A stretch of 64,000 bases of DNA from Octopus vulgaris (taxonomy: Eukaryota): the NCBI GenBank assembly GCA_951406725.2, contig OX597826.1, positions 11,656,001 to 11,720,000 of the forward strand, in the 5' to 3' direction. The translations under genes were made by a program, and so were the position numbers. This document shows positions 5,833 to 63,436 of the stretch, piece by piece. The notes beneath the pieces are model-generated. The model did not search any database and was not told the DNA's origin. It worked only from the letters and a program-made list of their open reading frames with translations. Positions within the stretch are counted from its first letter, which is position 1; each line of letters starts with the position of its first letter.

Positions 5833-5942
5833 ACATATGAAAAATATATATATACTTTCTCACTTTCCCGAGCGTCAAACTAATACACTAGTTTGTTTAT
5901 ACACCTGTCTTCGTCTTTTGTTTTCCTGTAAATTTCAACTGA

Positions 5943-35146: not shown

Positions 35147-36004
35147 CACACACACACACGCATATATATAAAGGTATGATCCAAGGATCAAAGTGTAGGA
35201 AGTTACTGAATACACACACGCACACATATATATATATATGTACATATGTGTGTGTGTGTATGTATATATACATATACGTATATATATATATATATATATA
35301 TTCACTTATAATTGTATGTATGTATATTAACAGTGTCCTAGCACGCACAACAGTGAGTTTAGGGTTTGGTAATCGGCTCTACATCAAACACCAATATTCG
35401 TATATCCTACGTGCTGTGAATTCAAAGATCTTATCGGAAGGTTGACTAAGGTGCAGATTCCAAGCCATATCACTCAATGAAAAACACAAGAAACCTTATT
35501 AGTATTATTATGCTTTAATATACAAATGATTCAATAAGCAGGTGGTTCATTTCTTTGGTATTCGTGAAATAAAATCCTTTTACCGAAACGCCAAAAAAAT
35601 GAGCTGTCGTCTTTTTGAAATATTTTCTATATTAAAACGAAGAACACTAGTTACATTTCTTGCATTTCTCTCTGAGTTTCACGTAACCCGTCATCAGACA
35701 GATGCGGAATTCTGGAACAAGAAAATGGCATTTTTAAATTGTTATAGGTGATGTACATGGTAGTATTTGACAAATAATCAAATAACTAATCGAATTTGAT
35801 AGGATGAAGTTCGTGATGTTTCAAAATGAATAGAATCTAGGGGATAATATGTCTGACCGTCACACACACACACACACATACACACACACATTAGTCACTC
35901 TATCTCTCTCTCTATTTTTCACCTTTTCACTTTCTCTTCCTCTCTCTCTCTCTCTCTTTATTTTTCCCCTTTCTCACTCTCTCTCTCTCTGTTTATTTTC
36001 TCTT

Positions 36005-36110
36005 ATTCCTTTCTGTTGAAGAACATAGGTCCAAGCGTCAAACTAATACACTTTGCCTATTGTTCACACACCTGTCTTCATCTTTTATTTTTCTATAAAT
36101 TTCTACTATC
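36005..36110 (+). mobile_element. Minimal-HHR family element, internally deleted
   Basis: CTTT-CTGTTGA-AGAAC-ATAGG followed by the family body (aactaatacac...cacctgtcttc); a further HHR-less piece is at 5855-5940. Confidence 0.7.
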
Positions 36111-53181: not shown

Positions 53182-53259
<78 letters not shown>

Positions 53260-53324
53260 GTTCGTTAGCCCCTACACGCAATTTTTTCTCTCCTTATTTC
53301 TCTCCTTGTTTCTTTTCTGTGTAT

Positions 53325-53360
53325 ATTTCTATCGAAGAGCGTAGGCTCGAAACGTAAAAG
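53325..53360 (+). ncRNA. Minimal HHR, U6 family (element 53237-53490)
   Basis: ATTT-CTATCGA-AGAGC-GTAG-GCTC-GAAA-CG-TA-AAAG. Confidence 0.6.
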
Positions 53361-53487
53361 ACTTGTTTTATTTCTATTCCTCAGCGCCATACTAATACAT
53401 TATTTGTTTGTACTCCACCTGCCTTCGTCTTTTGTTTATTTTCGTAAACCTGCCTTCGTCTTTTGTTTATTTTCGTAAACCTTCCGT

Positions 53488-53520
<33 letters not shown>

Positions 53521-57741: not shown

Positions 57742-59207
57742 ATATATCTATATATATATATCTAGCCATGAACGTGTATATATACGCACACACACATATG
57801 CATATGCATTTGTGAGAGTATGTTTGCGATAATACTGTGCTAATTAATATACTGATAAATATTAATAGAATACATTTCTAAATATTCATATTGTTATAAG
57901 CATCAGCTTTTGCTGTGTAATAACAGATATCAAGCAACATTTGTTGTGTGTGTGTGTGTGAGTGTGTGTGTATGTGTGTGTGTGTGTGTGAGTGTGTGTG
58001 TGTGTATTAAAGTGAATATGTCCTCATCTGAATATGTATATATATGTGTGTGTGTGTTTATATGTATATTAATATATATTATCACACACACACATACACA
58101 CACATACACACATGCATTGATATGTATATATATATGTGTGTGTATATGTGTGTTCGTGTGTATGTGTGCGTGAGAGAGAGAGAGGGAGAGAAAGAAGGAG
58201 AGAGAGAAAGAGGGGGAGAGAGAGAAAGAGTGAGAGAGAGAGAGAGAAAGAAGGAGAGAGAGAGAGAGTATGTATAGACTCACGCACGTACATAAATAAA
58301 GTAAATAAGTAAATACAGGCAATGAACGGGATCCGCCGTCGGGTCGACTTTGCCTGTTCATCCTTTTGGGGTATTCTCGATTACCACTATAAGTACCAGT
58401 TACAGAATCACTATGGGATTGTGTTTGGTTAGGTCTGGCTGCTCATAGCCACTGCGAAAGCTAACATCATGGACTCGGATACCAAAGTACAGTTGCTCTT
58501 TTTTCCTGTGCTTTTTTGGGCAGGCGCATTTCAGCACGCTTTGTTAGAGTTGCCTCTGACGTTAAGGCGACGAGCTGGCAAAAGCGTTAGCACGCTGCGC
58601 GAAATGCTTTGCGGTATTTCGTCTGCTGCTACGTTCTGAGTTCATATCCCACCGCGGTCGACTTTGCCTTCCATCCTTTCGGGGTCGATAAATTAAGTAC
58701 CAATTGCGTACTGGGGGTGATCTAATCCCGAAACATTTCGGACTTTATGGAGTGGAAAAGTGTTGCCACTGGTGTTGCAATTAGTTCTGAGTTTTCTTTT
58801 TACTTTTTCAGTTGTTTCAATGCGACCATGCTGGAGTAACACCATGAGGGATCTTAGTCGAACAAATCGATGCCAACACTTCCTTTTCTTTGTTTTCTTT
58901 AAAGTGTGGTACTTCTCTTCTCGGTGTTTATTCTCTTGCTGGAGTGCTATATTACGGGCACGTAAACAAACCAATATCGGTTGTTGAGCTCTAGGAGAGA
59001 GGGCAAACACAGAACAAAATCACACACACATATTTATACATATATGTAGAGAGAGAGAGAGAAAGAGAGAGAGAGAGGGAGAGATAGAAAGAGAGAGGGA
59101 GAGTGAGAAAGAGAGAGAGTTGAAATTTACAAACAAACAAAAGACGAAGACAGGTGTATGAATAACAAGCAGGTGTATTAGTTTGACGTTTGGGAAAGTG
59201 AGAATGT

Positions 59208-59243
59208 CTTTTATGTTTCGAGCGTACGCTCTTCAGCAGAAAG
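59208..59243 (-). ncRNA. Minimal HHR, same family (element 59118-59295 inside a SINE A microsatellite)
   Basis: CTTT-CTGCTGA-AGAGC-GTAC-GCTC-GAAA-CA-TA-AAAG. Confidence 0.6.
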
Positions 59244-59604
59244 GAATATGAGAAAATAAACAAAGAAAATAAAGAAAAACTTGTGGATTTAGCGAGATAT
59301 ACACACATAGACACGCACGCAGGCATACATATATATACATGCATACAGTGGGTTTCCATTCAGTATCCATCAACCAAATTCACTCACAAGGCATTGGTCG
59401 GCCCAAGGTGCCGAGTAGTGGGACTGAATCCGAAACTCTGCGGTAGCAAAACGAGCCTCGGGGATCAATGATGAAGTCACATTTTTTTTTTTGTCTTTCC
59501 TTCAATTATACAACCTCACTCAGGATGTAAAGCCTAGATCACGATAATATTTAAAAAAAACCAGCAATTTTCATGCAGTATGTCTTCCCTCTATCAGTGT
59601 TTTC

Positions 59605-61795: not shown

Positions 61796-61837
61796 CTCTG
61801 TATGTCTATATGTATACATATATATATATAAAATTCT

Positions 61838-61871
<34 letters not shown>

Positions 61872-61961
61872 AGAGTTTACAAAAAAAACAACAAAAGACG
61901 AAGACAGGTGGCGTACAAAACAAACAGATGTATTAGTTTAACGCTCAGGAATAGAAAAAGT

Positions 61962-61997
61962 CTTTTACGTTTCGAGCCTACGCTCTTCTACAGAAAG
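61962..61997 (-). ncRNA. Minimal HHR, U6 family (best copy)
   Basis: CTTT-CTGTAGA-AGAGC-GTAG-GCTC-GAAA-CG-TA-AAAG; all stems intact. Confidence 0.7.
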
Positions 61998-62126
61998 GAG
62001 ACAGAAAAAAGGGATCGAAACGTTAAAGACTTGTTTTATTTATATTTCCTGAGCGCCATACTAATACAATTGTTTGTTTGTTTTCCACCTGCCTTCGTCT
62101 TTTGTCTATTTTCATAAAGCTTCCCG

Positions 62127-62184
<58 letters not shown>

Positions 62185-62270
62185 GTAATTTACGAAATAA
62201 ACAACAAAAGACGAAGACAGGTGGTGTACAAAAAAGATGTATTAGTATAACGCTCAGGAAAAGAAAAAGT

Positions 62271-62306
62271 CTTTTACGTTTCGAGTCTATGCTCTTCTAC
62301 AGAAAG
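62271..62306 (-). ncRNA. Minimal HHR, U6 family
   Basis: CTTT-CTGTAGA-AGAGC-ATAG-ACTC-GAAA-CG-TA-AAAG. Confidence 0.62.
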
Positions 62307-62331
62307 GGACACAGAAAAAAGGAGAGAAACA

Positions 62332-62399
<68 letters not shown>

Positions 62400-62402
<3 letters not shown>

Positions 62403-63120
62403 GGACAAAAACGCAACAGAGGACAATAAAACATGCGGACAGATAGACAATACAAGAGCGGACAGGAAAAACAACAATTAGAGGAACAGGAAAAATGGAC
62501 GGGTCATTCGTGGCTTTCTTTCCTCAGTCAAGTTATCAGATATCCCTACAGTTTCAGGTAGTTACAGTTGAGTCTGTTAGAGCATTAGATTTTTTTTATA
62601 AGAAAGCAAGCGAATGTGTACGAGAACAAAGACAAAAAAACAGAGAACATGGTACACAATTACAAATACAAACAACAAGAATATAACAAAAGGTGACTTT
62701 CAACTGAGGACGAATCAGATTGAGCTGGCGTGTATAAAGGGAAAGCCTTAAGGCAGGAAAACAGGAGATAGACATAAGAGGTGTTGGCGGTCGGCAGTCA
62801 AACCAAGAAAGAAAGACCATGGCTGACGGAACACCGATCACGTGGAAGGAGGAAAGAGGAGTAGGGGCAACGCGATTGAAGGATTAGAAAGAATTAAAGA
62901 GACAAAGGGAACGGTACAGGGGAGACAAATGAGGGGGAAAAGTAGGAGTTAAAGAAAGAGAGGGTCAGGAAATGTGAGAGAGAAGGAGCCAGAAATGTGA
63001 AAGAGGGGGAGCCAGAAAAGAGGAAGAAAGTAGGAGGGGAAATAAAAGACAGTAAAAGAACCGTACGAAATTTAGATACATGCATACTATAAGGTGAGCA
63101 AAAGTGTATGTGCACCGTTA
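62400..63120 (-). mobile_element. Longer diverged member of family P
   Basis: 62495-62635 aligns to 19418-19585 (aatctaatgctc, ttgactgaNga, cgaatgacccgtcc); extent beyond that is approximate. Confidence 0.6.
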
Positions 63121-63246
63121 TATGAATATATAAACATTAAAATGATGAAAATAGGGGAGAATTCACAAAAAAACACAAAAGACGAAGACAGCTGGTGTAG
63201 ACAACAAAGAAATGTATTAGTTTAACGCTCGGGAAGTGGAAAAAGT

Positions 63247-63282
63247 CTTTAACGATTCGAGCCTACGCCCTTCCACAGCAAG
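63247..63282 (-). ncRNA. Minimal HHR, U6 family (degenerate; element 63150-63400)
   Basis: CTTG-CTGTGGA-AGGGC-GTAG-GCTC-GAAT-CG-TT-AAAG. Confidence 0.5.
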
Positions 63283-63436
63283 GAATACAAAAATAAACAA
63301 GGACCGAAAATAAAGAATGTGTAGTGGCTAGCGATCTATCATGGCGAATGCCGGACAGAGGGCTCACACAGGAGAGCTACGAAGAAGGGAGATAATAAAG
63401 TATTGTATATATACATACATACATATATATACATAT

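Follow-up and report, generated by a model that had tools for sequence, protein, structure and literature searches.

A Penelope-like retrotransposon of Octopus vulgaris with uridine at position 6 of its hammerhead core

How has a hammerhead motif come to be multiplied in a genome with a substitution in its catalytic core, and does such a motif still cut? The question is raised by a 64,000-nt stretch of the Octopus vulgaris genome (assembly GCA_951406725.2, contig OX597826.1, positions 11,656,001 to 11,720,000; here called the window). A sequence-only reading of the window had described a 36-nt motif, recurring in a short element within microsatellites, with the architecture of a minimal type I hammerhead and the core CUGUNGA in place of CUGANGA, i.e., with uridine rather than adenosine at position 6 (hereafter U6 and A6). 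All six places that it listed are confirmed (61962, 62271, 63247, and 59208 on the minus strand, 53325 on the plus strand, and a partial motif from 36009 on the plus strand), with position 6 reading T, T, T, C, T, T and position 7 reading A, A, G, T, C, T. A 24-letter motif pattern with up to two mismatches matched five of the six, compared with 0.01 matches expected from shuffling. Here we report the element that carries the motif, the distribution of U6 across the genome, and the readings of its function. Neither the class of element nor that of motif is new; the U6 core is the variant.

The carrier element

The first lead was a single locus where a GIY-YIG frame precedes a U6 motif by 850 nt. 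The endonuclease, used as a query, gave at least 150 scored matches (17,420 candidates), all at 98 to 100% identity and stop-free, with open frames of up to 1,214 codons. In all 30 endonuclease-anchored loci, a U6 motif lay 790 to 900 nt past the endonuclease. Fourteen longer stretches contained units of about 4.5 kb, whose open reading frame (ORF) lies between pseudo-long terminal repeats (pLTRs), plus a tandem run of four motifs; all 25 motif matches in these stretches (22 distinct) were U6. The motif occurs once per pLTR, on the sense strand of the ORF for reverse transcriptase (RT) and endonuclease, as is typical of Penelope-like elements (PLEs). The ORF (L140:3350-6562; 1,071 aa) matched RVT_1 (E = 1.8e-7) and carries DKG and YIDD motifs, a CxxxxCxxC linker (aa 836 to 844), and, C-terminal to the RT and behind the linker, a subthreshold match to GIY-YIG (aa 874 to 907; E = 0.0064). 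Nine other units showed 97.4 to 98.5% identity to L140. No stop stands just past the last conserved residues of the endonuclease (L140:6240-6560), and the frame runs on for about 110 further codons into a variable, pyrimidine-rich tract.

The 3' end of the element is fixed about 105 nt beyond the predicted cut, and a TA-type repeat follows 94 of 99 tails; the host genome (2.8 Gb) is rich in microsatellites. At tandem junctions the unit itself contains a short TA run, and this suggests that priming occurs through annealing to (TA)n nicked at the target. The single ORF with a DKG-containing RT and C-terminal GIY-YIG, the zinc-finger-like CX2-5CxxC linker ahead of the latter, and the pLTRs and partial tandems, 5' truncation, and microsatellite targets are all features of the Neptune clade, while the N-terminal endonuclease of Naiad elements is lacking, the GIY-YIG domain being C-terminal to the RT. 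Nor is the repeat a fixed-length noncoding tandem unit with a canonical type I hammerhead (i.e., a non-LTR retrozyme), because its 5' ends are variable and contiguous with a coding element and one array only was found. That array (L021, minus strand, 1518-2761) holds seven U6 motifs, most with one stem I change in common, in units of 172 to 241 nt separated by TA spacers, and is a local, retrozyme-like amplification. Elsewhere (G000:C8:18600685-18602192), four junction matches spaced 492 nt apart mark a putative tandem mini-element with a junction between pLTR and 5' untranslated region.

The carrier is almost certainly a PLE with the motif in its pLTR, is of Neptune type by its motifs, and, to judge from its sequence, is young, intact, and autonomous. 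The link to PLEs drawn by the sequence-only reading has thus become direct, through the adjoining ORF for RT and GIY-YIG. The short element itself does not stand free, its copies being the 3' ends of a 4.5-kb retrotransposon. The following features of the window belong to this family.

61863..62012, minus strand: 3' end of the PLE, 5'-truncated, subfamily 'TA'; fixed 3' end, then (TA)n.
61962..61997, minus strand: 36-nt motif of the minimal type I hammerhead, intact; U6, N7=A, GUA site; cleavage predicted between 61966 and 61965.
62012..62134, plus strand: 5'-truncated, inverted PLE end of the youngest subfamily; begins within the motif; 97.6% identity to the intact element.
62175..62331, minus strand: 5'-truncated PLE end whose U6 motif (62271-62306) is mismatched in stem II.
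63151..63400, minus strand: 5'-truncated PLE end of subfamily 'TG'; its U6 motif (63247-63282) is decayed and has a GUU site.
59126..59300, minus strand: old PLE end; motif at 59208-59243 carrying C6.
53254..53500, plus strand: PLE end; its motif (53325-53360) has U6, with A in place of G5; tail with a short internal duplication.
35996..36110, plus strand: old PLE end; 5' half of a U6 motif from 36009, 3' half deleted.
About 5856..5940, plus strand: tail-only remnant of the PLE family without the motif.

No remnant of the PLE ORF was found anywhere in the window, whose copies are 5'-truncated ends in (TA)n; two of them (62012-62134 and about 5856-5940, both on the plus strand) lack a full motif and add to the six places above. 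The hammerhead architecture that had been ascribed to the motif is intact only at 61962, while the other five are decayed in core or stems: at 63247, A15.1 is changed, stem II holds a G.U pair, stem I is mismatched, and the site reads GUU rather than GUA, and at 59208 the stem III palindrome is broken.

The inverted pair joined at 62012 combines two subfamilies (the plus half showing 97.6% identity to the youngest element and the minus half 78%), and reflects either two RNAs in one insertion or a later insertion into the junction. At 61831-61846 and 62134-62175, several ends meet tail to tail in the same TA run on opposite strands. The segment at 62440-63150 (minus strand) was considered as the 5' body of the U6 PLE and was ruled out; it is a separate repeat of about 750 bp (at least 3,210 candidates) whose 3' end is fixed and flanked by TA and which also occurs in partial tandems. 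Some 100 nt short of its end it has a CUGANGA in which N7 is free, the canonical second half being absent, and it is possibly a nonautonomous PLE with a half-core.

Position 6 and the conservation of the fold

Across the genome, the exact 25-letter motif pattern gave 17,695 matches with U6 versus 229 with A6, and reversed-pattern controls gave 0. A stems-only pattern with the core left free gave 19,156 matches, the first 100 of which read 97 T, 2 C, 1 G, and 0 A at position 6 (this and the other position-by-position listings cover the first 100 matches of each search, all from the start of contig 1). A motif-independent sample was anchored on a word 60 nt downstream (21,541 matches); 99 of the first 100 were parsed and 78 span the motif. 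These 78 read 74 T, 2 A, and 2 gaps at position 6; 31 T, 23 A, 15 C, 7 G, and 2 gaps at N7; and 61 A, 14 T, 1 C, 1 G, and 1 gap at H17. The U6 core that the sequence-only reading had supposed to be fixed is thus the genome consensus. For four contig runs that contain the pLTR, no alternative letter is listed at position 6, but since N7 variants are likewise unlisted, these runs give no evidence on U6.

The A6 copies with a 4-nt loop were considered as a young active sublineage and ruled out as such: they share diagnostics with several of the U6 subfamilies, and in a 58-row tree (short alignment; rough support) they did not group as a clade. Of 785 matches in the old layer, the first 100 read 82 T, 12 C, 5 A, and 1 G at position 6, and small C6 or A6 side branches are possible there.

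A6 itself is carried by a sister lineage with the same stem II and a 3-nt loop (4,844 matches; position 6 in the first 100 reads 97 A, 2 G, 1 C, and 0 T). The outer pair of stem I is G-C or G.U in this sister versus C-G in the U6 lineage. Over a region that takes in the motif, the sister consensus shows 58 to 66% identity to the U6 subfamilies, and for the tail alone z lies between 2 and 4.7 in most of 56 pairs, with no likeness for one query. ORF remnants adjoining sister copies were not clear in any of 90 loci, so the kinship is drawn from the motif and a modest likeness of the tails. Alignment against this sister also ruled out alternative registers that would give the U6 motif a canonical core. 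No hammerhead was among the Rfam matches listed for the window (150 of 348), and at E ≤ 10 neither a U6 copy nor an A6 sister copy had a hammerhead match; since the sister is also unmatched, the blank reflects the minimal architecture and not U6. Neither the A6 sister lineage nor the autonomous, very young carrier had been recognized by the sequence-only reading.

Further A6 motifs with other stems gave 660 matches versus 36 for U6 with altered stems (the two patterns differ by one constraint). At four loci (L223, L235, L239, and L266) we observed another canonical A6 family of minimal hammerheads with different stems I and II, followed by TA repeats. Since the sister with the same stem II and the other motif families carry A6, U6 is most likely derived from A6. 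Mean pairwise identity is 87.2% in the sister (24 copies) versus 99.4% in the youngest U6 copies (29 endonuclease-chosen copies), the two samples having been chosen differently; by this measure, the sister copies are older than the youngest U6 copies.

Six subfamily consensuses were built from 40, 27, 17, 6, 3, and 3 copies, with A6-selected loci excluded, and share 71 to 95% identity in the tail. Variable columns number 2 of 36 in the motif (N7 and H17) versus 32 of 86 downstream (Fisher p = 2.8e-4, a value that, like those for covariation, overstates the case because the subfamilies are related, the copies mostly motif-chosen, two consensuses built from 3 copies, and the covariation set hand-picked). 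Across subfamilies, N7 takes all four bases and H17 is A, U, or C. In 19 hand-picked copies, five of the eight pairs change on both sides and 96.7% of the cells pair; RNAalifold predicted stems I and II alone. Among the old U6 copies, three whose tails are homologous show G-C in place of A-U at 10.2-11.2 and a GUC site, and one of them also has a compensatory change in stem I. Two checks that the sequence-only reading had proposed, conservation of the motif relative to its flanks (here across subfamilies) and covariation of the stems, thus came out in its favor.

Position by position, the motif has C3, U4, G5, N7, G8, and A9, G12, A13, and A14, A15.1-U16.1, and H17 of the hammerhead, together with G10.1-C11.1, the extra base after A9, the palindromic 15.2-16.2, and compensatory changes in stems I and II. 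It lacks A6, and for this reason we class it as a homologous variant and not as a canonical member. About 25 nt past the cut site, a short word recurs in the U6, A6-sister, and more distant families (alignment A1, columns 77 to 99) and is a candidate protein-binding or RT-positioning signal.

Could the motif be a dead relic, with U6 fixed by drift and the block conserved through a DNA-level role, such as that of a pLTR promoter, or through ascertainment? PLE promoters are indeed located in the pLTR (PMC6765202; statements on published work here and below refer to the available parts of the cited papers), and our samples are mostly motif-anchored. However, the tail-anchored and endonuclease-anchored samples agree with the motif-anchored picture, and pair changes on both sides and a free N7 are RNA-level signatures. 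We consider this explanation improbable.

Cleavage and the role of U6

We put at about even the prospect that the U6 motif is a slow, dimer- and protein-assisted ribozyme with residual catalysis. This reading is favored over a noncutting fold because the unpaired catalytic bases are fixed, N7 is free, and H17 avoids G. In the cycle that we propose, the RT-endonuclease would nick TA repeats and copying would begin about 105 nt downstream of the motif; most template RNA would therefore be uncut, or cut and rejoined, at the motif, a need that a weak, gated cutter would fit. The U6 RNA would cut only upon pairing of two copies via the ACGU palindrome, probably assisted by the element's own protein. 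U6 would have arisen from A6 in an old ancestor of the lineage and then been retained. In a more specific version, which we think unlikely, U6 would nearly silence the free RNA, the RT-endonuclease (or Mn2+ in the complex) would switch cutting back on at a single step of the cycle, and such throttling would have helped U6 elements to outnumber and outlive the A6 sister.

Several points weigh against residual catalysis. The 5' ends lie within 25 nt of the cut site in none of 30 junction-bearing copies and within 3 nt in 1 of 99 short copies, with no pile-up, so the templates may mostly have been uncut or rejoined. In a saturation scan, mutations of the CUGA turn had low activity and second changes gave no rescue except a C3-G8 swap (PMC9901934), and hammerhead mutants of a Poseidon PLE left in vitro insertion unaffected (PMC11167929). 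The p-values for motif conservation and covariation are inflated by sample choice and kinship, parts of the tail are likewise invariant across subfamilies, so that conservation alone need not mean catalysis, and the U6 layer with a G-C stem II amounts to 3 to 4 copies.

The motif may, then, no longer cut, its fold being retained as an RNA signal for RT-endonuclease binding or for palindrome pairing of two RNAs; we regard this as the main, if less probable, alternative. The missing end signature at the cut site and the dispensability of cleavage in vitro for that other PLE speak for it, as do the weakness of A6 mutants (PMC9901934, PMC3088659), the success of Naiad PLEs without canonical hammerheads (PMC8557442), and the U6 lineage being larger and, by the identities given above for differently chosen samples, younger. 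Against it stands the pattern of change itself: G5, G8, A9, G12, A13, and A14 are fixed, H17 avoids G, and N7 drifts, as expected under a cleavage constraint. Residual catalysis, for its part, has precedents. A canonical PLE hammerhead cut only with its protein present, and there, too, RNA ends were not seen at the cut site (PMC11167929). The natural A6C hammerhead cuts at <0.1 per min (PMC3088659), slowly in Mg2+ and well in Mn2+ (PMC7151607); for A6U, the papers covered showed no rate.

It is very unlikely, in our view, that U6 is fully tolerated, a compensating contact (e.g., the 4-nt loop II) letting the RNA cut on a par with the A6 sister. U6 does accompany a 4-nt loop II, where the A6 sister has 3 nt, and it has persisted long, but 4-nt loops occur in older A6 families too, the mutagenesis scan showed no such second-site rescue (PMC9901934), and RNAalifold gave no extra helix.

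Whichever of these readings holds, a young, intact PLE has kept a substitution at a "fixed" base of the catalytic core through at least six subfamilies while retaining the rest of the fold. The U6 PLE and the A6 lineage, with the same stem II in the same genome, form a natural matched pair for testing the role of PLE hammerheads. If U6 is active, the natural hammerhead core widens, and searches for CUGANGA miss tens of thousands of copies in a single genome; if it is inactive, the fold is kept for a purpose other than cutting. Lunse et al. reportedly made a large survey of hammerhead variants in 2017. No natural U6 hammerhead family was found in the literature covered (including the available parts of PMC7761336 and PMC6962438); that survey, which lies outside this coverage, may list U6.

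Comparison with known systems

Recently active Penelope families have been reported from octopus, ribozymes going unmentioned in the available part of that report (PMC13282606), and the U6 PLE may for this reason already be present in repeat libraries. With the Neptune clade (Craig et al. 2021, PMC8557442), it shares one ORF with RT and C-terminal GIY-YIG, the DKG motif, the CX2-5CxxC linker with a long spacer (Fig. S2 of that paper, rows compared by eye), partial tandems, inverted 5'-truncated copies, and microsatellite targets. It differs in its noncanonical hammerhead core, the clade assignment being made by motifs alone. The Poseidon PLE PAc of the green anole (Frangieh et al. 2024, PMC11167929) likewise has a pLTR hammerhead upstream of an internal RT start and AT-rich targets; it belongs, however, to another clade and has a canonical core, and its motif overlaps the ORF start, whereas the U6 motif precedes the conserved ORF's first ATG by about 750 nt.

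The motif itself resembles the minimal type I hammerheads of metazoan PLEs (Cervera and De la Pena 2014, PMC4209133) in its core layout, the extra base after A9, G10.1-C11.1, the palindromic 15.2-16.2, a short stem I, one copy per pLTR, and thousands of solo copies. All 44 rows compared there (of 56; Fig. S3 of that paper) have A6, in contrast to U6 here, and the core variant described is U3-A8. A natural change at position 6 is known from the A6C hammerhead of phage Bcep176 (PMC3088659, PMC7151607), a single C6 example with measured activity, whereas U6 is fixed in about 18,000 exact copies known from sequence. Non-LTR retrozymes (PMC7229834; bioRxiv 10.64898/2026.07.22.740005) are also short hammerhead repeats tied to PLE pLTRs, and the one array of about 210-nt units at L021 is similar to them. 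Unlike retrozymes (PMC7229834), most of the U6 repeats lie scattered as ends of an autonomous element, truncated to varying extents, and their motif is minimal.
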